From the NCBI GenBank assembly GCA_005792205.1, contig SXSO01000138.1:1-36575 (forward strand): 36,575 nucleotides of DNA, given 5' to 3'. Source of the stretch: Bacteroidota bacterium (GTDB lineage Bacteria; Bacteroidota; Ignavibacteria; UBA10030; F1-140-MAGs086). The notes beneath the pieces are model-generated. The model had not been told where the DNA came from and made no database searches. It saw only the letters and a list, made by a program, of their open reading frames with translations. Position 1 is the stretch's first letter; every line of letters begins with the position of its first letter. The position numbers and the translations under genes were made by a program. This document shows, one piece after another, positions 1 through 21,131 of this stretch.

Positions 1-83
1 ATAATCTAAACAGTGGAATTTATTTTTATAAACTCACGACAAATAACTTTTCCGAAATGAAGAAAATGATTTTAGTAAAATAA
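1..83 (+). CDS. 3' end of a T9SS C-terminal sorting domain protein (truncated by the window edge)
   Basis: Frame from nt 3 reads NLNSGIYFYKLTTNNFSEMKKMILVK-stop (TAA 81-83), essentially the same C-terminus as the ORFs at 563-4555 and 18615-21131. Confidence 0.9.
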   Translation, partial: NLNSGIYFYKLTTNNFSEMKKMILVK

Positions 84-110
84 GTTTTTAGTCGTTATCG
101 TCGTTAAAAG

Positions 111-151
111 AAAATGGGATACAAAGTTTTTTGTGTCCCATTTTTGTTTTT
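111..151 (+). terminator. Rho-independent terminator after T9SS cargo gene, copy 1
   Basis: AAAATGGGATACAAA-GTTT-TTTGTGTCCCATTTT stem-loop (one G-U pair) followed by a T-rich tract. Confidence 0.8.
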
Positions 152-194
152 GGGAAATTGGAAAATTGGTTTAATAATGACAAATTATTTCTCT

Positions 195-525: not shown

Positions 526-571
526 CTACAAATAACAATCCCTTTTTTAAACATTATTTTTTTTGTGTTAT

Positions 572-3500
572 ATGCAATTACGACTAATTTATTATCTGTT
601 AATTATCAGTTTGGTCACTCTTTTCACAGGAGAACATTTTGCTTATTCACAAACTGTTAATTTTCCTTTTCCACAACATTTCACTTATACCGAAGGGACT
701 ATTTTCCCGTCAAATTATACTCAGCAACAACTTGATGATTCTACTTCTGTCTTTTACACGCGATGGAAAGAACGATATCTAATCAACGGTTGCGAACCGA
801 ATCAATATTATGTTTTCTGGAATTATGAAGGAGGTGGAAATCCACCAAATAGTATATCTATTTCCGAAGGACACGGTTACGGAATGATAATTACTGCGTT
901 GTTTGCGGGTTTCGATGTAAATGCAAAAAATTATTTTGATGGATTATACCGATACTTCAAAACTCATCCCACTGAAAGCGATTCTTTCTTAATGGCATGG
1001 AATCAAATTACCGGATGTGTCAATGCCGCAAACGGCGGAACAAGTGCTACCGATGGGGATTTGGATATTGCATACGCATTATTGCTTGCAGATAAACAAT
1101 GGGGAAGCAACGGAGAAATTGATTATCTCGCAGAAGCAAAAAATATACTTTTATCGCTTGAACAAAATTGTATAAATCCGATAACGTCAACAGTGACATT
1201 AGGAAATTGGGTAAATTCTTCCAATCAAAATTATTACTACGGAACACGAACCTCCGATTTTATGTTCTCGCATTTTCAATCATTTACGCTTGCATCGAAG
1301 AATCCGAAATGGAATCAAGTGAAAGATAAATGCTACGAACTTATTTCTTCCATTCAGAATAATTATAGCGCATCAACTGGCCTTCTTCCCGATTTTATCT
1401 ATCAGGTGAACACACAACCGAAACCCGCTCCTGCAAATTATCTCGAAGGAAATAATGATGGAAAATATTATTACAATGCTTGCCGCGTTCCGTGGAGAGT
1501 TGCTATGGATTATTTACATTACGGAGATATACGCGCAAAAAATTCTTTGGAAAAAATAAATACGTTCATCAAATCCACAACAAATTCTTCTCCGCAAAAT
1601 ATACTTCCAGGTTACGCGCTCAACGGAACGCCAATTCACACCGATTATGTAGATTTACCGTTTATCGCGCCGTTTGCCGTAAGTGCAATGACTGATTATT
1701 CGCATCAGCAGTGGTTAAACTCTATGTGGAATTATCTGCTGACGTTTTCGTTGAATGACGCATCGTATTATGGCAACACACTCAAACTTCTTTCAATGAT
1801 TGCCGTTTCCGGCAATTGGTGGAATCCACAAATTCTAACGTTTGGAAATTCTCTGTATGTTTCTACAAATGGAAACGATAATAATCCCGGAACAGAACTG
1901 TTGCCGTTGAAAACTGTTCAGCGAGCATTGAATATTGCTTCTGCGGGAACTACAATTTTTGTGAAAGAAGGAATCTATAACGAAAAAATTACATTCACTC
2001 ATTCGGGAAATGTGAACGATGGATTTATTACGCTTCGCAATTATGGAGGCGATACTGCAATTCTCGATGGAACAGGAAAAATGGGAGAACAAATGATTTT
2101 GATTGAAAATAAAAGTTATCTCAAAATCATCGGTTTGGAAATACAAAATAATTTGAATCAATCATTTGGTTCGGGAATTTGGATAAAAGGAAACGGAACA
2201 CATATCGAAATCCGCAACAATCGTATTCACGATATGAAAGCAACGACCAACGGTGACGCGATGGCGATTTCTGTGTACGGAACAAACGCAACTCCGTTTT
2301 CCAATATTATCATTGACAGTAACACAATTTACAATTGTCAACCGGGACACAGCGAAGCGCTTACTTTGAACGGAAATGTTGATACGTTTCAAATCACTCA
2401 CAATATCGTTCACGACGTAAACAACATTGGCATTGATATGATTGGCGGCGAAGGAACGTGTCCCGATGCAAATCAGGATGCGGCAAGAAATGGAATTTGC
2501 AGAAACAATATTGTTTATAATGCACATTCCAATTACGGCGGAGGATATGCAGCGGGAATTTATTCTGATGGTGGAATCAATATCATAATTGAAAACAATC
2601 TTGTCTTTTCTTCTGATGCTGGTTTTGAAATCGGCTGTGAAAATCAAGGAAGGATTTCCTCGGGAATTATTTTGCGAAATAACATAGCATATAACAATGA
2701 TAAACGTGGAATTGGAATCGGCGGATATAATTTTCCGCAAACGGGAAAAGTTATCAATTCGTATATCGTGAACAATACACTTTTTAATAATGATATTCTG
2801 AATACAACTGAAGGAGAATTGGTTGTGGAATACACGCAAAATTGTTGGTTTGAAAACAATATTTTTTATGCTTCATCGCAAAATCGGTTGTTCGTAACAA
2901 CAGTCGGAAACAATAGTGGAAATATTTTCAATCACAATACTTGGTATTCTCCCGGTGGAAATTCATCTGTAACGATAGATTTCAACGGAACGATATATTC
3001 TTCATTTACTGCGTATCAGAACGGAACGGGACAAGACGGAAATTCAGTTTTCGGAAATCCCCTCTTCATTTTTCCATCTTCGTCGTTTCCCGATTTTCAT
3101 CTTCTCAATAATTCTCCCGCAATAAATATTGGCAATAATTCGCTTTCAACAATATTAGGAAATTTTGATTATGATGGAAACGAACGAATCCAAAATGGAA
3201 TTGTTGATTGTGGCGCGTTTGAAATGAACACGAATGCGCCAAATCCGCCACAAAATTTAACTGTTGCTGGAAATGATTCGCTGGTAATTTTGCGATGGAA
3301 TAAAAATTCAGAAAATAATATTCTTCGCTACAGAATCTACGGAAGTACAACGTTTCATCCGATTTCACAAATTGATTCTACAACTGATACTTCAATTACC
3401 ATTGTGAATTTACAACGCGGAGTGCAATACTATTTTCGCATCACATCAGTAAATACAGAAATTTTGGAAAGCGGTTTTTCTAATGAAGTTAATTTTACTA

Positions 3501-4555
3501 CGCTTGCGTTTCAAATGTTTCGCACATTCAAATCGGATACTTCGCTTTCAAAAAAAGCAAATAAAGTAAAAATAAAAAAGAATGTTATAACAGTTTTTCC
3601 AAACATCGCAACGGTTATTGAAAATATTTTCATAACAAATGGAAAAATATTTAGACTGAATTTGGGAATTCCTCAAACATCTACAAATACAAAGAAATAT
3701 GCGTGGTTACAATTTAAAAAGTCGTCAGAAATTGGAAACCTTTATACGTCATCTCACACGGATAATGGAATTGCGTATCCAATTGATTCACTTCGCAGTG
3801 GAACGAAAGCAAAAAAAATGTCAAAAGCAATTACACCAACAAGAAAAAATTTTGACAACATTGCGTTTGAGCAAGGAGTTGTTTTTAAAATGAACATTGT
3901 TGCAAGTGAAGACACAATTCTTCCGTATGGATTTGGAGATTTGATTTTGGACACTTCATTTGTGTTTATTGGCAAAAATTTAAATGGAATGGCATTAAAA
4001 AATATTGCAATTTATTTTGATTCCGTTATGACGTATTGGGAAATTTTTGGAATAAATAATCAAACTCAATATGAAAATTTGTATTCATTTTCAAAACATA
4101 TTTTGAAGCGAATTAACGATGGTTTTTTTGCTCTAATGGATACATCAAATTATGAAATTGACAAAAATGTAATTGTAAAAAAACCGTATTCTGTGAAATT
4201 GGATGGAGTAAAACTCGCTTCTGAAATTGGAATTATAAAACAATTTACCGAAAAAAATATTTCTAACTTTTCAGAGGAAAATAATTTTCTCGATAAATTT
4301 TCATTGAAACAAAATTATCCAAATCCATTTAATCCGAAAACAAAAATAAAATATGAAATTGCAAAAAGTGGATTTGTAAATTTAAAAGTGTTTGATGTTT
4401 TAGGTCGTGAAATAAAAACACTTGTAAATGAATCTCAAAATGTTGGAACTTACGAAATTGATTTTGATGCGAGTCATTTGAACAGTGGAATGTATTTTTA
4501 CAAACTCACGACAAATAATTTTTCTGAAATGAAGAAAATGATTTTAGTAAAATAA
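572..4555 (+). CDS. Secreted multidomain glycoside hydrolase: signal peptide, GH8, right-handed beta-helix (DUF1565-type start, choice-of-anchor-Q-like end), FN3, unassigned conserved domain, T9SS CTD
   Basis: GH8 motifs SEGHGYGM, SATDGDLDIAYALLLADKQW and YYYNACRVPWR; YVSTNGNDNNPGT..PLKTVQRA and Asn-rich beta-helix; DFHLLNNSPAINIG..DCGAFE; FN3 PNPPQNL..LRW..YRIY..YYFRITSVN; CTD FSLKQNYPNPFNP..KKMILVK. ATG at 572 is preferred over the TTG at 563. Confidence 0.9.
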   Translation: MQLRLIYYLLIISLVTLFTGEHFAYSQTVNFPFPQHFTYTEGTIFPSNYTQQQLDDSTSVFYTRWKERYLINGCEPNQYYVFWNYEGGGNPPNSISISEGHGYGMIITALFAGFDVNAKNYFDGLYRYFKTHPTESDSFLMAWNQITGCVNAANGGTSATDGDLDIAYALLLADKQWGSNGEIDYLAEAKNILLSLEQNCINPITSTVTLGNWVNSSNQNYYYGTRTSDFMFSHFQSFTLASKNPKWNQVKDKCYELISSIQNNYSASTGLLPDFIYQVNTQPKPAPANYLEGNNDGKYYYNACRVPWRVAMDYLHYGDIRAKNSLEKINTFIKSTTNSSPQNILPGYALNGTPIHTDYVDLPFIAPFAVSAMTDYSHQQWLNSMWNYLLTFSLNDASYYGNTLKLLSMIAVSGNWWNPQILTFGNSLYVSTNGNDNNPGTELLPLKTVQRALNIASAGTTIFVKEGIYNEKITFTHSGNVNDGFITLRNYGGDTAILDGTGKMGEQMILIENKSYLKIIGLEIQNNLNQSFGSGIWIKGNGTHIEIRNNRIHDMKATTNGDAMAISVYGTNATPFSNIIIDSNTIYNCQPGHSEALTLNGNVDTFQITHNIVHDVNNIGIDMIGGEGTCPDANQDAARNGICRNNIVYNAHSNYGGGYAAGIYSDGGINIIIENNLVFSSDAGFEIGCENQGRISSGIILRNNIAYNNDKRGIGIGGYNFPQTGKVINSYIVNNTLFNNDILNTTEGELVVEYTQNCWFENNIFYASSQNRLFVTTVGNNSGNIFNHNTWYSPGGNSSVTIDFNGTIYSSFTAYQNGTGQDGNSVFGNPLFIFPSSSFPDFHLLNNSPAINIGNNSLSTILGNFDYDGNERIQNGIVDCGAFEMNTNAPNPPQNLTVAGNDSLVILRWNKNSENNILRYRIYGSTTFHPISQIDSTTDTSITIVNLQRGVQYYFRITSVNTEILESGFSNEVNFTTLAFQMFRTFKSDTSLSKKANKVKIKKNVITVFPNIATVIENIFITNGKIFRLNLGIPQTSTNTKKYAWLQFKKSSEIGNLYTSSHTDNGIAYPIDSLRSGTKAKKMSKAITPTRKNFDNIAFEQGVVFKMNIVASEDTILPYGFGDLILDTSFVFIGKNLNGMALKNIAIYFDSVMTYWEIFGINNQTQYENLYSFSKHILKRINDGFFALMDTSNYEIDKNVIVKKPYSVKLDGVKLASEIGIIKQFTEKNISNFSEENNFLDKFSLKQNYPNPFNPKTKIKYEIAKSGFVNLKVFDVLGREIKTLVNESQNVGTYEIDFDASHLNSGMYFYKLTTNNFSEMKKMILVK

Positions 4556-4582
4556 GTTTTTAGTCGTTATCGTCGTTAAAAG

Positions 4583-4623
4583 AAAATGGGATACAAAGTT
4601 TTTTGTGTCCCATTTTTGTTTTT
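4583..4623 (+). terminator. Rho-independent terminator after T9SS cargo gene, copy 2
   Basis: Same sequence as 111-151. Confidence 0.8.
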
Positions 4624-4666
4624 GGGAAATTGGAAAATTAGTTTAATAATGACAAATTATTTCTCT

Positions 4667-5224: not shown

Positions 5225-6523
5225 TTACACAAATAAATTTTTATTTCTCATATCTTTTTTATACTTTTCATATAACATTGTTTGATGACTTGTTAAATCA
5301 ATTTTTTTTCCGTCAATAAATTCCATTTCAACATTTGAACGAATATCAAAAATATCTCCATTCACAATAATTAAATTTGCGTCTTTTCCAATTTCTAACG
5401 ATCCAATTCTATTATCAACACCAAAAATTTGTGCGGGAAAAAGTGTAATGGATTTCAATGCAATATCTTTTGGAAGTCCATGAGCAATAGCAGTTCCAAC
5501 TTGATATGGAAGATTGCGATAATTTCCATCTCCACCTTCGTCTGCAGAAAAACAAAATTGGATTCCATTTTCATACAATTTTTTTGGAAGTAAAAATGGT
5601 TCGTTATACTGTTCCCAATTTCTATCGGGAAGTCGATGAGTCATATTTGCAACAACAGGAATTTGTTTTTCTTTCAAAAGATTTGCAATTCTCCAACTGT
5701 CATTTCCACCTGCAATTATTATGCGAACGTCATATTCTTCTGCAAACGCAACTGCAGATTGAATTTGTAAAATATCAAATGCCCAAACAAGAAGTGGAAC
5801 TTTTTTTTCAAAAACATTTATCATTGCGTCAAATTTTGCATCATATTTTTGTAGTGAATTATTTTTCTTTGCAACGAAATATGCTTTTGCATCTTTGAAA
5901 AATATTTGTAGTTCGTTTACAGATTTTTCATTTTCTTTTTTTTGGTCTTCTTCACTTCTTGTTTCCCACCACGCAGTATTTATTTTCATACTTGGGAAAT
6001 TCAAAACCATTGCTGACATTGATTTTACAAGCATATCTTCATAAGTCCATCCGTCAAGATTTACTGTTGCAATACTTCCAGAAATAATTCCACTTTGTGG
6101 TAAAACATTTACAGTTGTAATTCCATTGAAACGAGTTACAGGAATCAATTCGCTTTCAGTATAAACGGCAACTTCTGTTTTTAAATTCGGATTAAATTTT
6201 CCACCTTCAACATTATCGTGAGTTGCGCGAAGTGCTTGAACTTCATTTAATCCAAGAGTTGTGATTGAACTAAAAAGTCCGGGATAAATATGTTTTCCAC
6301 TTGCATCAATAATTTCATATTCAGAAGTTAAAGAAAAGTTTTTTCCAACAAATTCAATTTTTCCATTGCGAAAAGTTATTGTTCCTTTTTCAATTATTTC
6401 ATTTGCCGTGAAAACAGTTCCATTGATAATTGCAATTGGTTTGATTTGTTTTTTTGCAGGAATTTGATCGTTGCAAAAAATAATTTTGACAAAAAATAAA
6501 AAGAGAATAAAGTTTTTTTTCAT
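5225..6523 (-). CDS. Amidohydrolase-family protein, secreted, with degenerate metal site
   Basis: IDASGKHIYPGLF and IGSLEIGKDANLII amidohydrolase composite-domain motifs; HxH absent; N-terminal signal peptide. Confidence 0.85.
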   Translation of the reverse strand: MKKNFILFLFFVKIIFCNDQIPAKKQIKPIAIINGTVFTANEIIEKGTITFRNGKIEFVGKNFSLTSEYEIIDASGKHIYPGLFSSITTLGLNEVQALRATHDNVEGGKFNPNLKTEVAVYTESELIPVTRFNGITTVNVLPQSGIISGSIATVNLDGWTYEDMLVKSMSAMVLNFPSMKINTAWWETRSEEDQKKENEKSVNELQIFFKDAKAYFVAKKNNSLQKYDAKFDAMINVFEKKVPLLVWAFDILQIQSAVAFAEEYDVRIIIAGGNDSWRIANLLKEKQIPVVANMTHRLPDRNWEQYNEPFLLPKKLYENGIQFCFSADEGGDGNYRNLPYQVGTAIAHGLPKDIALKSITLFPAQIFGVDNRIGSLEIGKDANLIIVNGDIFDIRSNVEMEFIDGKKIDLTSHQTMLYEKYKKDMRNKNLFV

Positions 6524-6528
6524 GGCGA

Positions 6529-9486
6529 TTATTTATTTTTTTCGTTTAAAATTTTTTGAATAAGAGTTGAACGAACTTCTTGAATTTTTTGATTTAATAT
6601 TTTATTTTCTTCAATATCAAAAAATTTTTTTCCATCAATCCAAGTTTGTTCGCAAATTGAATATGTGGAAAGTGGGTTTCCATTCCACACAACAAAATCA
6701 GCATCTTTCCCAATCTCTAATGAACCAACACGATTATCTATTTGAAGTTGTTTTGCGGGATTTATTGTTACAAAATTTAGTGCTTCTTCTTCTGAAAGAT
6801 TTCCATACTTCACTGCTTTTGCTGCTTCTGTATTTAATCTTCTCGCCATTTCATCACTATCAGAATTGAACGAAACCACAATTCCTTCATTATGCATCAT
6901 TGTTCCATTAAAAGGAATTGCATCAACAACTTCATATTTATATGCCCACCAATCAGAAAATGTAGACGCACCAACTTTATGATTTGCCATTTCTGTTGCA
7001 ACTTTATATCCTTCTAAAATATGTTGAAATGTTGCAATGCGAAAATTAAATTCTTCTGCAACTCTAATCATTGCTAAAATTTCATCTTGTCTATATGAAT
7101 GACAATGCACTAATCTTTTTCCATCTAAAATTTCTACAATTGCATCAAGTTCTAAATCACGACGAATTGGAAATTGTTTTTCACTACGATTTTGAAAAGA
7201 TAATTTGTAATCAATTGCTGCTTTAAACTCAGAACGAATCAATTCATTTACTCCCATTCTTGATTGCGGAAAATGATTTGAATTATTTTCTCCCCAATTG
7301 CTGTGTTTTGGATTTTCTCCGAGAGCAAATTTAATTCCCTCTTTTGCATTTTCAAATTTCATTTCATCAGGAAGAAAACCCCAACGAAGTTTTATCACTT
7401 GATTTTGTCCTCCAATTGAATTTGCAGAACCATGTAAAGCATTTATTGTTGTTACACCTCCTGCAAGTTCGCGATAAATTGAAATATCTTCTGAATCAAT
7501 TACATCTCCAATTCTAACTTCTGATGTTATGATTTGTCCCGTTTCATTCACGCTTCCACTTACAGCAGAATGCGAATGACAATCAATTAAACCACTTGTT
7601 ATGTGTTTTCCATTTGCTTCAATCACAAAAGAATTTTTTGGTTTGGAAAGATCTTTTCCAATTTCTTTTATTTTTCCTTTGTGAATTATTATGTCTCCAT
7701 TTTCAATTTTTCCAAGTAGAGATGAAGTCCAAATTGTCGCATCATTTATGAAAATGTATTCTACTTGTTCAGGAAATTTATCTTTTCCAAATGCTGTCAT
7801 TGGAAATGTGATTGGAAAAGACGTAAGCGAAATTTCAATTTCTTTTTTGGATGAGTCAAATTCTATTTTTGGTTCTGAAATTTTTTTTCCATTTAGAAAT
7901 AAAATTTTTCCATTTGGAAGTTGCAAAGTACCAAAGAAATTATTTTGAGAAAATGTTCCGTCAAGTAAAATTTTTCCTTTTACATCAATAGAATCACCAT
8001 CAAATGAAATTGATGAAAGCGTATTGTTTATTGATATTTTTGCTTTAATAGAATTTTGTATAGAATCGTTTTTTGAAATATTTGCAGAAAAATTTTCTTC
8101 TTTAAATTTTATTTCTATAAAAAAATTTTCCAACAACGTTTCATTTGAATTTAATTTCCAAATTCCACAAACAGATAAATTTTTTTCTTTTTCAATTTCA
8201 AATTCTTTTCCTTCAACCCAAACACTTAAAATTTTTCCATTTGAAAATATATTTCCATTTGATACAATTAGATTTGCAATTTTTCCTTTTTCAACCGTTC
8301 CCAAAATTTTTTCAACATTTAACATTTTTGCAGGAACTGTTGTAAGTGACGAGAGAGCAATATTTTCTGGAAGTCCTTTTTTAATTGCAAGTTTTAAATT
8401 TTTAAAAAAATCATTTTTTGAATTTTGTGATGTGAGAGAAAATTCAATTCCGTTTTGAAAAAATATTTTTGGATTTTCTGATGCATATTCCCAATGCAAA
8501 AGTTCAGAAACATCAATATCCAACGACTTTTCATAAGTATCAACATTTGGTGTTTTTGGAAAATTGAGTGGCAAAATAAATTGTGTTTTCAAATTTTTTA
8601 TTGCGTCAATTCTTTTATATTCATTTCCACTTCCCAATAAAATTAAATTCAAATTAAATTCATCAGCAATTTTTTTTGCACGAAAAACTTCTAAATGATT
8701 TGAAGTTTCAATCACAAACGGTTGTTTTTTTTGAATTACATTTTGAAGCGATTCTAAACTATTATTTATTTCAATTGGTTTTAGAGAATTTTTTTCAGAA
8801 AATAATTTTGCATCTTTATACCAAATTGCATCATAAAGTGTTTGTCGCAAAAGTGAGATTACTCCCATATTTGAATTTGGATAATTTTCTCCTTCAACAT
8901 TTTCAACTTTGAGTGTAGAGTGCATAAAAACATTTTCTCTAATCACTAAATTTGGAATTTCTGTTTCCTCATTTAAATTTAAAAGAGCACTTGTTCCTTT
9001 TATATTTCCTTTTTGCAAAATAAATAACGCAGAAGTAAATCCAAGTTTACGAAGTTCATTAAATTTATTTTCGTCTTTTGAAAATTCTTCCAAAACATTT
9101 TTGTGAGATAAAACTTTTTTGTTCCAATAAATCGCATTTGTAGAAGGTGATTGTTGTTGTTGCGGTGATTTATTTTTTTCTTTTTGCTCCACAATAGAAT
9201 ATGATTCAATAAATCCTGGATAAATTGTTTTGCCTTTTAAATCAATTACAAAAGCATCGTTTGGAATAGAAATATTTTCACCAACATTTTCAATTACGCC
9301 ATTGTGTATCAAAAGAATTCCATTTAAAATTGTTTTTGTTGGCGATTGCACAATAGTTGCATTTTTCAACGCAAATACAGTTGATTTATTTGTGCGAATT
9401 CCCTGTTGAGAATTTGTTTGAGAATTTATTTTATTTAGAAAAGTATTTCCAATTAAAAATAAAAAAAGAAAAAAAATTTTTTGCAT
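6529..9486 (-). CDS. Double-domain amidohydrolase-family protein, secreted
   Basis: Two amidohydrolase units: IYPGFIESYS..GTVEKGKIANLIV, and ITSGLIDCHSH..HCHSY..FQH..SDSDE..VGSLEIGKDADFVVW. Confidence 0.88.
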   Translation of the reverse strand: MQKIFFLFLFLIGNTFLNKINSQTNSQQGIRTNKSTVFALKNATIVQSPTKTILNGILLIHNGVIENVGENISIPNDAFVIDLKGKTIYPGFIESYSIVEQKEKNKSPQQQQSPSTNAIYWNKKVLSHKNVLEEFSKDENKFNELRKLGFTSALFILQKGNIKGTSALLNLNEETEIPNLVIRENVFMHSTLKVENVEGENYPNSNMGVISLLRQTLYDAIWYKDAKLFSEKNSLKPIEINNSLESLQNVIQKKQPFVIETSNHLEVFRAKKIADEFNLNLILLGSGNEYKRIDAIKNLKTQFILPLNFPKTPNVDTYEKSLDIDVSELLHWEYASENPKIFFQNGIEFSLTSQNSKNDFFKNLKLAIKKGLPENIALSSLTTVPAKMLNVEKILGTVEKGKIANLIVSNGNIFSNGKILSVWVEGKEFEIEKEKNLSVCGIWKLNSNETLLENFFIEIKFKEENFSANISKNDSIQNSIKAKISINNTLSSISFDGDSIDVKGKILLDGTFSQNNFFGTLQLPNGKILFLNGKKISEPKIEFDSSKKEIEISLTSFPITFPMTAFGKDKFPEQVEYIFINDATIWTSSLLGKIENGDIIIHKGKIKEIGKDLSKPKNSFVIEANGKHITSGLIDCHSHSAVSGSVNETGQIITSEVRIGDVIDSEDISIYRELAGGVTTINALHGSANSIGGQNQVIKLRWGFLPDEMKFENAKEGIKFALGENPKHSNWGENNSNHFPQSRMGVNELIRSEFKAAIDYKLSFQNRSEKQFPIRRDLELDAIVEILDGKRLVHCHSYRQDEILAMIRVAEEFNFRIATFQHILEGYKVATEMANHKVGASTFSDWWAYKYEVVDAIPFNGTMMHNEGIVVSFNSDSDEMARRLNTEAAKAVKYGNLSEEEALNFVTINPAKQLQIDNRVGSLEIGKDADFVVWNGNPLSTYSICEQTWIDGKKFFDIEENKILNQKIQEVRSTLIQKILNEKNK

Positions 9487-18540: not shown

Positions 18541-18551
18541 AAAACAAAAAT

Positions 18552-18587
18552 AAAAAAGGGACACAAAAAAACTTTGTATCCCATTTT
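18552..18587 (-). terminator. Rho-independent terminator after T9SS cargo gene, copy 3
   Basis: Reverse complement of the same GGGATACAAA..TTTGTGTCCC hairpin, preceded by AGTCGTTATCGTCGTTAAAAGAAAAT. Confidence 0.8.
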
Positions 18588-18614
18588 CTTTTAACGACGA
18601 TAACGACTAAAAAT

Positions 18615-21131
18615 TTATTTTACTAAAATCATTTTCTTCATTTCAGAAAAATTATTTGTCGTCAATTTGTAAAAATAAATTCCACTGTTTAAATTTGTTG
18701 CATCAAAATCAATTTCGTAAAATCCACTTTCCATTTCTTCATTATTTATTAGTGTAGAAATTTCACGTCCAAGAACATCATAAATTTTTAACGACACATT
18801 TTCAACATCAACTAACGAAAATAAAATCGTTGTCTTCGGATTAAATGGATTTGGATAATTTTGTTGCAAAGAAAATTTCGTCGGTGAAAAATTTTCTGCA
18901 TCAAGAAAATCTTCGTTTAAATTTTTCCCTGAATTATCTTTTACAATTGGAACATCAATTGAAGGATATGCAACTCCATCAAGTGTTACTGCATAAGATT
19001 TTTTCAAATTTAAAACAGCATTTTGATCAACAGTATAGTTTGATGTATCAAATGTTGCACTGAATCCTTCATTTATTCTTCGCAAAATATTTTCAGAAAA
19101 TGAATACAAATTTTTATACGCATCTGAATTTGTTACACTATTCAAAGACCAAAATGTTGCAAGTGAATCCATATAGTTTGCAATTTGTTTTAAAGATAAT
19201 CCATAAATATCTCGTCCCATAAACGTAAATGAAGTATCTAAAATTAGATCTTCAAATCCATTTGGTGTAACAAAAACTTTACTTGCAGCAATGTTAAGTT
19301 TAAACAACATTCCTTGTTCCAAAAATTTATTATTGTAGTTATCGCGTTTTGGTTTTATTGCTTTAGCAAGTTTTTTTCCCGTAGATTTTCCTGTTGAAAC
19401 ATTTCTCACATAATCAAGTGGGAATGATGTGTCAGAAATTGTGTGAGAAGAAGTATAAAGTTTTCCTAAATCAGTTGATTTTTTAAATTCAATCCACGCA
19501 ATTGTTTTTGCTAAAGTTGTATTTGTTGTACTTACACCAAATACAACTGCACTTCCTTTTGGTGTTTGTGATTGAAATACGTTTTCAACTGCTGTAACAA
19601 GATTGGGAGCAGTTTTAAATGTAACTTTATCTTTGTTGTAAACAATTTTTTTTAATTTATCTGAAAGAGAAATTTCAGATTTGAATGTTCTATATTTTCC
19701 TGAAATGTTTTGTTCAAATCCATATTTTGCAATAAAAATATCATATGAACTATGTGAATTAGTTGTCATAACAGAATCAAATGTCATAACTTGACTATCA
19801 TAATATCCTGTTATGAAATAATTTCCATCGGTATCAACTGTTATACTTTGACCTTTATCTAAATCACCACCACCACCATTTTCAACTAATACAACATTTC
19901 CATTTGCATCATATTTTGCAATGAAAATATCTGATGATGTTGTAGATGTATTTGTAATTGTAATTGTACCAAAACTTGCTGATGTTCCTGAAAAATATCC
20001 CGTGATAAAACTATTTCCACTTCCGTCTACAAAAATATCCCAACCAAAATCATCACTTGTTCCTCCTGCACTTTTTACCCATTTAAAAATTCCATTTGCA
20101 TCATATTTTACAATAAAAATATCGCTTCCACTTCCTTGATGGTTTGTTACAGAACCACTTCCAAATTCAATTGAATTACTTTTGAAATATCCAACTGTAT
20201 AAACATTTCCATTGTCATCTACATCAAGTGAATATGTTTTATCTTCATCTCCACCAACTCCACTTTTTGCCCAAAGAACTTCTCCATCTGCATCAAACTT
20301 TGTAATGAAGACATCTGCATCTCCATCATTGGTTAAAGTTGCCGTTGTATCAAATGTAAGTGTTGAGCTATAAAAAAATCCAGAAATAAAACTATTTCCA
20401 CTGTTGTCAACTGTGATTCCACTTCCAACATCGTTATATTCTTCACCAAAACTTTTTGCCCACGTAATTTCACCATCAGCAGTTGAAAGTTTTGCAATAA
20501 AAATATCTCCACTTACAGTTGTATCACTATTATTAAACAAAGCAGAGTTTCCAAACGTAATTGTGTTACTATAAAAAACACCAGTGATATACACATTGTT
20601 ATTATCTGTTGCAATGTCTAAACTATAATCTGCGTTTTCATTTCCAAATCTTTTTGCCCATTCAACTTCACCATTAGCAGAAGAAAGTTTTGCAATAAAT
20701 ATATCTTCATTTCCTGCAGATGTTAAAGTTGTTGAGCCAAATTCAATAGCATTTTTAAAATATCCTGTAATATAAATATTTCCATTGTCATCAATATCTA
20801 TATTTTTACATTCATCTGTATTTGTTCCACCAAAACTTTTTGCCCAAACAACATTTCCACTTGAATTATATTTTACAACGAAAACATCTGCAAGTCCATT
20901 ACTTGTCAAAATTGTTGAACCAAAAGTTGTTATTTCCGAACTTTCAAAATATCCTGTAATATAAATGTTTCCATTGTTATCCGTAACAATACTTTGTCCA
21001 TAATCATTTCCATTTCCTCCAGAAGTTCTAGCAAATTGCCATTCAGGTGTTTGTGAAAAAGTTTCAGTAAAAAATGCAACACAAATTAAAATTGTTGCAA
21101 TAATATTTTTAGTTTTTAACGTAATGTTCAT
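18615..21131 (-). CDS. Secreted SBBP/beta-propeller repeat protein with unassigned conserved domain and T9SS CTD
   Basis: Signal peptide; about 7 repeats of D.G..I.vD..GN.YITGYF...DIFIAKY...G...WAKSFGG; YRTFKSE domain from aa 480; CTD FSLQQNYPNPFNP..KKMILVK. Confidence 0.9.
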   Translation of the reverse strand: MNITLKTKNIIATILICVAFFTETFSQTPEWQFARTSGGNGNDYGQSIVTDNNGNIYITGYFESSEITTFGSTILTSNGLADVFVVKYNSSGNVVWAKSFGGTNTDECKNIDIDDNGNIYITGYFKNAIEFGSTTLTSAGNEDIFIAKLSSANGEVEWAKRFGNENADYSLDIATDNNNVYITGVFYSNTITFGNSALFNNSDTTVSGDIFIAKLSTADGEITWAKSFGEEYNDVGSGITVDNSGNSFISGFFYSSTLTFDTTATLTNDGDADVFITKFDADGEVLWAKSGVGGDEDKTYSLDVDDNGNVYTVGYFKSNSIEFGSGSVTNHQGSGSDIFIVKYDANGIFKWVKSAGGTSDDFGWDIFVDGSGNSFITGYFSGTSASFGTITITNTSTTSSDIFIAKYDANGNVVLVENGGGGDLDKGQSITVDTDGNYFITGYYDSQVMTFDSVMTTNSHSSYDIFIAKYGFEQNISGKYRTFKSEISLSDKLKKIVYNKDKVTFKTAPNLVTAVENVFQSQTPKGSAVVFGVSTTNTTLAKTIAWIEFKKSTDLGKLYTSSHTISDTSFPLDYVRNVSTGKSTGKKLAKAIKPKRDNYNNKFLEQGMLFKLNIAASKVFVTPNGFEDLILDTSFTFMGRDIYGLSLKQIANYMDSLATFWSLNSVTNSDAYKNLYSFSENILRRINEGFSATFDTSNYTVDQNAVLNLKKSYAVTLDGVAYPSIDVPIVKDNSGKNLNEDFLDAENFSPTKFSLQQNYPNPFNPKTTILFSLVDVENVSLKIYDVLGREISTLINNEEMESGFYEIDFDATNLNSGIYFYKLTTNNFSEMKKMILVK

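Follow-up and report, generated by a model that had tools for sequence, protein, structure and literature searches.

How type IX secretion system (T9SS) cargo is kept at the cell surface or released from it is, to our knowledge, still little understood except in a few oral and gliding Bacteroidota, and a contig from an uncultured member of the Ignavibacteria raises this question in a concrete form. The window analysed here, which is the whole 36,575-nucleotide stretch of contig SXSO01000138.1 (assembly GCA_005792205.1), is AT-rich, with a GC content of about 25-35% in 2-kb windows, and encodes two complete secreted proteins with a terminal T9SS C-terminal domain (CTD). Between the passenger and the CTD of each protein there is a shared stretch that we call domain X. 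What is this domain, and what may it be doing at that place? Our analysis indicates that X is an undescribed and lineage-restricted family with an apparently new fold, a strict position ahead of the CTD and a striking charge signature, and that the proteins bearing it are modular T9SS cargo with an accessory module that may serve for anchoring. The two cargo genes and their parts are the following:

563-4555, plus strand: cargo gene 1, 1330 residues from a TTG codon with a Met three codons in (open reading frame (ORF) list and translation); putative signal peptide, GH8, right-handed beta-helix/DUF1565, fn3, domain X, linker and type A CTD, in this order.
3518-4237, plus strand: domain X copy 1, residues 986-1225 of cargo 1 (profile envelope).
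4238-4315, plus strand: linker between X and the CTD of cargo 1, about 26 residues, variable and polar; the expected site of CTD removal, as inferred from PMC11969387.
4316-4552, plus strand: type A CTD of cargo 1 (PF18962, E 2.5e-13; the genome-wide scan gives 4316-4543).
18615-21131, minus strand: cargo gene 2, 838 residues; putative signal peptide, SBBP beta-propeller repeats, domain X, linker and type A CTD.
18942-19694, minus strand: domain X copy 2, residues 480-730 of cargo 2 (profile envelope).
18627-18857, minus strand: type A CTD of cargo 2 (PF18962, 53.9 bits in the genome-wide scan).

The Pfam matches of cargo 1 correspond to GH8 (residues 96-414), DUF1565/Beta_helix (436-649), fn3 (895-976) and Por_Secre_tail (1252-1327), and those of cargo 2 to SBBP in six stretches and to Por_Secre_tail (759-835), the PF18962 scores of the two proteins being 50.5 and 48.7 bits for a cut-off of 27. 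Comparison of the two whole proteins by BLASTP gives a single collinear alignment, of residues 986-1330 of cargo 1 with residues 480-838 of cargo 2, with 51% identity over 359 columns and an E-value of 6e-102, and when the CTD is left out the X stretch of copy 1 still retrieves copy 2 (48% identity, E 8e-68). The original prediction, made from the DNA letters and their translation, had placed a shared region at 3518-4240 and at 19694-18940 and had listed a series of collinear blocks; the profile envelopes match these limits, and every listed block is included in the alignment. Both window copies match the X profile end to end, and across 113 copies there are 15 columns conserved at 85% or more (R2, T3, P28, G50, W63, D90, K99, N114, N126, S130, L142, D168, T172, N200 and F203). 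X is a real domain of about 230 residues that had not been described previously. Moreover, there is no conserved Cys or His column in those 113 copies, which favours a binding or structural role over that of a hydrolase.

The same prediction recognised no named family in this stretch, and database searches agree. The window copies have no Pfam or NCBIfam match at E < 0.05. Among 55 members, which form an alignment (A2) with rows 21-49% identical to the window copy, no Pfam family (SLH, dockerin and carbohydrate-binding modules included) has more than one matching member at an E-value of 1 or below, and no NCBIfam family (sorting-signal-associated domain models included) has more than one, the best E-value being 0.015. 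A sequence search of the PDB gave a best E-value of 0.41 and a profile search one of 1.7. A lookup in the ESM Atlas returned a best feature score of 0.87, under the trustworthy level. In the literature, a full-text search that did not cover supplementary files found no description of the domain. Weak single matches to TaqI_C (E 0.055), ribosomal protein L23 (E 0.11), D-arabinose isomerase (E 0.41) and the CHD1 chromodomain (E 1.7) were dismissed as chance.

A structural picture of X, as a module that folds autonomously, was obtained with AlphaFold2. The model built from the 55-row alignment has a predicted local distance difference test value (pLDDT) of 93.1 and a predicted template modelling score (pTM) of 0.91, with all five models at 89 or above, and supersedes an earlier one from a 15-row alignment, which was uneven (pLDDT 78.9, the other four 50-70). 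In this model the N-terminal half is alpha/beta, with strands at residues 18-26, 47-49, 62-66 and 91-105 and short helices, and the C-terminal half comprises three long helices (115-131, 160-172 and 182-202) followed by two closing strands, in line with the expectation, also advanced from the sequence, that X would probably be helical in its later part. A Foldseek search of the PDB with the model found no match at an E-value of 0.001 or below, and VIA-align against 48,161 representative PDB chains gave a best Z of 3.7, with none at 5 or above, when a Z of 7-8 is typical even for models that have no clear Foldseek match. The fold searches done with the earlier 15-row model were likewise empty. 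Judged from the model and in comparison with PDB chains, there is a strong suspicion that the fold of X is new. The sole structural match is a BFVD model, A0A6N1NZ86 (Foldseek E 1.2e-5, probability 1.00; next row E 1.3), which aligns over 230 columns with a TM-score of 0.49 on the query, 15% identity and a root-mean-square deviation of 6.7 Å. It corresponds to a predicted 606-residue 'Ig family protein' of Tupanvirus deep ocean, a giant virus, and is compared with X by model only; distant homology, gene transfer and chance are all conceivable explanations of the match. A scan of viral contigs revealed no close relative.

How widespread is the domain? The genome of origin (handle G000, the window being its contig C126) is an Ignavibacteriales-type metagenome-assembled genome (MAG) of an uncultured bacterium, with 1.24 Mb in 155 contigs and an estimated completeness of 62%. 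A first iterated profile over its six-frame ORFs detected 15 X ORFs with one copy each. A larger profile added a 16th copy, in an ORF of 2793 residues, at an E-value of 2.3e-34 (hhalign 99.8%, E 4.5e-28), and the next-best ORF of this genome stands at E 0.011. The additional protein is located as follows:

G000:C133:6042-14420, minus strand: 2793-residue CTD protein with a G8 domain and a divergent X, missed by the first profile.

Absence of X from other CTD proteins, which the original prediction had named as a refutation, does not apply, as 16 CTD proteins carry it here and from 29 to more than 70 in genomes of the same family. In the genome of origin there are 49 matches to PF18962, of which 45 exceed the cut-off, and a CTD profile of our own also finds 45 CTD ORFs, 15 of which (about one third, ~33%) have X. 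Among the genomes of other samples, X was found as follows:

Own family (f1): X in 3 of 3 genomes, with 29, 53 and at least 70 matches.
Families f2 and f5 of the same order: X in 6 of 6 genomes each, with 7-15 copies each.
Six other families of the order: X in 0 of 25 genomes, most of them at least 94% complete.
Class sample: X in 5 of 251 genomes, including one outlier genome in f21.
Phylum sample: X in 4 of 401 genomes.

X is lineage-restricted, being present only in part of one order. The CTD matches counted in four carrier genomes (109, at least 150, 129 and 121) and in one non-carrier (at least 150) indicate that the share of cargo with X is between about a quarter and a third in f1 and lies at 5-10% for f2 and f5. 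On a larger scale, an hmmsearch of 1.84 billion representative proteins returned 810 X matches at an E-value of 0.001 or below, 695 of them at 1e-10 or below and 228 at 1e-30 or below. For X matches that carry a source name, this is only 'T9SS type A sorting domain-containing protein' or 'hypothetical protein', and their source MAGs are labelled Ignavibacteria, Ignavibacteriae, Ignavibacteriales or Bacteroidota. A one-protein locus search retrieved three related loci in two MAGs, labelled Ignavibacteriales and 'Chitinophagales', the latter of which holds two X copies.

Within this collection there is also a conserved orthologue of about 800 residues with X (L031:34-2469 and L036:94-2490, both on the plus strand), which is 44% identical between f2 and f5. 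It consists of a putative signal peptide, around eight W-Q-D-x-R ... D-I-Y-A-Q repeats (partly SBBP), X and the CTD. This orthologue is the commonest X protein in metagenomes, with many matches of about 780 residues, and may be the ancestral carrier of X.

The position of X is as follows: a single copy per protein, after a variable passenger and around 30 residues before the type A CTD, never at the distal tip or internal and never in tandem. In the top 150 library representatives, the CTD comes after X in 147, the remaining three being cut at their C-terminal end, and none contains two X domains. The linker of those 147 has a median length of 31 residues (range 26-64), with 140 of them between 20 and 39, and 14 copies of the genome of origin, measured with our own CTD profile, show linkers of 28-33 residues. 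In the same genome, 105-118 residues are left after X in 13 of 15 ORFs, the other two being shortened by contig ends, and all 70 X matches with precomputed Pfam domains contain PF18962. X lies outside the PF18962 match and upstream of the linker, and is not part of an extended CTD. When the CTDs themselves are compared, the nearest one to an X-linked CTD is also X-linked in 12 of 13 cases, with only 13 of the 42 CTDs labelled X, so that X and CTD travel together, in a count that rests on related sequences and is no independent statistic. Altogether, these sequence relationships suggest that X, linker and CTD may behave as one cassette.

Such a strict arrangement would also be expected if X were no anchor at all but a recognition surface for the T9SS (PorV, PorU/PorZ) or for a lineage-specific outer-membrane partner, or an aid to the export competence of very long cargo. 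Besides the constant spacing (140 of the 147 linkers) and the co-evolution of X and CTD seen in the nearest-neighbour count, this reading draws on the length of the X ORFs, about twice that of other CTD ORFs (median 1340 versus 716 residues). However, two thirds of the cargo of the genome of origin do without X, including ORFs of 1524 and 1565 residues, and X is absent from sister families in which the CTD matches number at least 150. A role in recognition or export is, in our view, unlikely.

The most informative property of X is its charge. Full-length copies from the library representatives have an isoelectric point (pI) of 9.02-10.36 in 98 of 98 cases, whereas for the passenger portions of these proteins the median pI is 4.65. 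The median net charge of X is +13 overall, with +15 in the N-terminal half and -2 in the C-terminal half, as anticipated by the description of its first half as Lys-rich, and all 16 columns with at least 60% of Lys or Arg fall in residues 2-124. As a control within the genome of origin, the pI was calculated for the 240 residues ahead of linker and CTD, and resulted in values of 8.48 or above for 14 of 14 X proteins and below 6 for 27 of the 29 cargo proteins classed as lacking X. One of the two exceptions is a Kelch propeller with a pI of 7.93, and the other, with a pI of 9.71, was then recognised as the 16th X copy mentioned above, which amounts to an unplanned blind confirmation of the charge signature. 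A polycationic X next to acidic passengers, and set against acidic cargo without X, is consistent, at the level of sequence, with surface retention.

It could be argued that X is just an inert spacer or stalk, whose basicity would come from a Lys-rich composition in AT-rich genomes. In this regard, at the low GC content of the window, and with a pI above 9 in 29% of those ORFs of the genome of origin that reach 200 residues, basic composition alone is not rare here. But the passengers within the same polypeptides are acidic, and the 98 copies come from many lineages and are all basic. Moreover, the 15 conserved columns have been kept in 113 copies despite identities as low as 21-49% to the window copy, and ordinary Ig-like spacers are already found upstream of X. 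An inert spacer is, in our opinion, the least probable of all the readings considered.

The passengers offer another view of the problem. X is fused to at least ten unrelated passenger types, such as GH8 with beta-helix and fn3, two SBBP propellers, FG-GAP with Big_9, WD40 with cadherin, arrays of SdrD_B/CarboxypepD_reg, NIDO, LVIVD, PLDc_2, MAM and G8, as well as giant proteins in which Pfam recognises no domain. In 5 of the 16 X proteins of the genome of origin, a beta-sandwich (fn3 or SdrD_B) ends 10-40 residues ahead of X. The original prediction had imagined many different enzymes on a common platform, and in this point it was overstated: a recognisable enzyme domain is present in 2 of those 16 proteins (GH8, PLD-like), most passengers being propellers, Ig-like or SdrD-B arrays, or giants without a Pfam match, and all five CTD peptidases are without X. 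The 29 cargo proteins without X that were scanned include these peptidases (two S8, M14, M36 and M28), endonuclease I, PLD-like and Omp28 proteins, and also propellers, FG-GAP, LVIVD and SdrD_B. Passenger function was considered as a discriminator and dropped, because the peptidase counts (5 of 29 versus 0 of 16) are small numbers and other passenger types are found in both sets.

X is found together with adhesin-like repeats, with a glycoside hydrolase and with a nuclease or phospholipase of the PLD-like type, and its positive charge is kept at fixed columns. These features would also suit a ligand-binding or adhesion module that, in the manner of a carbohydrate-binding module, is directed at anionic targets outside the cell, such as DNA, acidic polysaccharides, mineral or the surfaces of other cells. 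For such a module, however, X is found at the wrong end of the protein, always cell-proximal beside the CTD and never distal or internal, and as a single copy without tandems; in addition, a search against carbohydrate-binding module families produced a match for 1 of 55 members, which was weak (E 0.044). We regard an external ligand as quite unlikely.

The function that we infer for X, and that we favour tentatively at somewhat less than an even chance, is that it holds or orients the mature cargo on the anionic envelope, as the cell-proximal end of the protein after CTD removal. According to measurements in Prevotella intermedia, the CTD is cleaved off within the flexible linker that joins it, as a folded unit, to the folded domain before it, and glycosylation of the new C-terminus follows (PMC11969387). 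Translated to the X proteins, the cargo would pass the outer membrane via its CTD, and the PorU sortase, which is encoded in the genome of origin (NF033707, 946 bits for a cut-off of 420; G000:C23:5144-8425), would cut in the flexible linker, so that X would become the C-terminal, cell- or membrane-proximal domain of the mature cargo. The polycationic N-terminal half of X might then bind non-covalently to anionic envelope polymers, such as lipopolysaccharide phosphates, acidic O-antigen or exopolysaccharide, and this binding would orient the acidic passenger outward. Such a role could operate alongside, or in place of, the covalent attachment of a glycan to the C-terminus. In a more ambitious version, X would constitute a new non-covalent anchoring system, a polycationic 'surface hook' of new fold that docks around one third of the secreted proteome on a lineage-specific anionic envelope glycan, which we find doubtful. 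If this were true, retention or release would be set by the presence of X in the cargo, and not by the CTD and the PorU/PorZ complex alone.

Several observations weigh against anchoring by X. Passengers of the PLDc_2, FG-GAP, LVIVD, SdrD_B and MAM types occur in cargo both with and without X, so there is no clean split between retained and released proteins. PorU is found over its cut-off in 40 of the 41 genomes searched, with or without X; X is therefore no substitute for a missing covalent attachment system, and PorU presence was ruled out as a discriminator of X genomes. None of the fold comparisons with the PDB, either by Foldseek or by VIA-align, provided a match that points to a ligand. 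The six sister families manage many CTD cargo proteins (at least 150 CTD matches in one of them) with zero X, and the frequency of basic ORFs in the genome of origin counts on the same side.

As a separate observation on the sortase, a second PorU-like ORF of around 1800 residues, with 175-280 bits and hence under the cut-off of 420, was detected in many genomes of the order (G004-G038), with none from the own family (G000-G003) among the matches listed.

Anchoring was in fact part of a broader proposal of the original prediction, where X was a lineage-specific adaptor for surface retention, S-layer or scaffold docking, or self-assembly. Of this proposal, which is partly supported, the lineage restriction, the modularity and the coupling to the CTD (147 of 150; 70 of 70) are borne out, and self-assembly and scaffold docking gained no positive support. 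A self-assembly or docking module, building a shared scaffold in the manner of cohesin-dockerin pairs or S-layers, would be compatible with a domain common to many cargo proteins and with the split charge of X, basic in the N-terminal half and mildly acidic in the C-terminal one. On the other hand, copies that each bear a net charge of about +13 would not readily pack against one another, and no dedicated scaffold gene adjoins the window copies, whose neighbours are housekeeping genes, which makes this option very unlikely. A complex prediction for two copies of X with alignment A1 (score 0.00, mark 0.42) speaks neither for nor against self-association.

The genes flanking both window copies encode amidohydrolases, a CN-hydrolase, IspF, Lnt, a threonine-aldolase-like protein, Ppx/GppA, PrmA and an M28 peptidase, and no operon partner of X is evident among them. 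Two adjacent genes of the amidohydrolase family (432 and 985 residues; 5225-9486, minus strand) lie a short way downstream of the GH8 cargo gene and in the opposite orientation, the larger of which has a signal-peptide-like N-terminus and two amidohydrolase stretches. At the other extreme of the cargo proteins, both N-termini show a hydrophobic stretch followed by S-Q (AYSQT and TFSQT; 563-660, plus strand, and 21040-21131, minus strand). This S-Q after the putative signal peptides is compatible with the 'Q-rule', by which an N-terminal glutamine marks substrates of signal peptidase I in Bacteroidetes and which, according to the same source, is not valid across the whole Fibrobacteres-Chlorobi-Bacteroidetes (FCB) group (PMC5837995). 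A third CTD gene is clipped by the start of the window:

3-71, plus strand: last residues of a CTD gene (PF18962 positions 52-74, E 0.003), where the presence of X is not known.

The ends of the CTD genes share a repeat, found at 4470-4640 (plus strand), 18545-18694 (minus strand) and 9-167 (plus strand), as well as in at least 30 more places of the genome of origin. It contains the last ~85 nucleotides that code for the CTD, then the stop codon, and some 75-85 nucleotides downstream, a part that holds a GC-rich hairpin and then a T-run. The repeat is common to many CTD genes, with 75-97% nucleotide identity, and the copies at 9-167 and 4470-4640 are 97.5% identical. Between the two window genes, identity extends beyond the stop codon and the coding sequence upstream has clearly diverged further. 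Contig ends coincide with many of the copies, and the assembly thus breaks at these repeats. This pattern suggests either gene conversion or a conserved element of the 3' untranslated region or terminator for T9SS cargo genes.

A single portable domain that marks a defined subset of the cargo gives a testable handle on surface display in a group that is uncultured but environmentally widespread, the 810 representative clusters being from metagenome-derived proteins. In all 70 named relatives, present database annotation sees the CTD only. X also offers structural biology what may be a new fold, and could serve as a display tag in T9SS hosts.

Among known systems, the SLH (S-layer homology) domains and the GW modules of Listeria InlB are portable, non-covalent surface anchors of Gram-positive bacteria, and GW modules are strongly basic and bind an anionic envelope polymer. 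As a working analogy, X resembles them as a reusable module at the cell-proximal end of many unrelated secreted proteins. In contrast, there is no sequence relation (0 of 55 X members match these, or any Pfam family, consistently), the predicted structure combines an alpha/beta half with a three-helix half, and the setting of X is a Gram-negative outer membrane, where it is coupled to a T9SS CTD, its binding being putative. T9SS cargo can also have an Ig-like domain ahead of the CTD, such as the IgSF domain of the gingipain RgpB, and these pre-CTD domains are small and common beta-sandwiches with no charge signature. Like them, X is a folded domain just upstream of the CTD linker that would become C-terminal after processing, but it is three times larger, polycationic and partly helical, and lacks a fold match in the PDB (best Z 3.7). 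Finally, in the study of Prevotella intermedia cargo, type A CTDs are described as beta-sandwiches that have 3-7 strands, bear the motifs B, D and E and come directly behind the linker where cleavage occurs, and the 'long' CTDs as seven-stranded beta-sandwiches that differ from the short ones only in loop and strand number (PMC11969387, Ye et al. 2025). The X proteins are similar to that cargo in ending with a canonical PF18962 CTD behind a flexible linker. The identification of X as a 'long CTD' of this kind was rejected: unlike those seven-stranded sandwiches, X is helical in part, and constitutes a separate mixed alpha/beta domain of about 230 residues upstream of the linker (PMC11969387).

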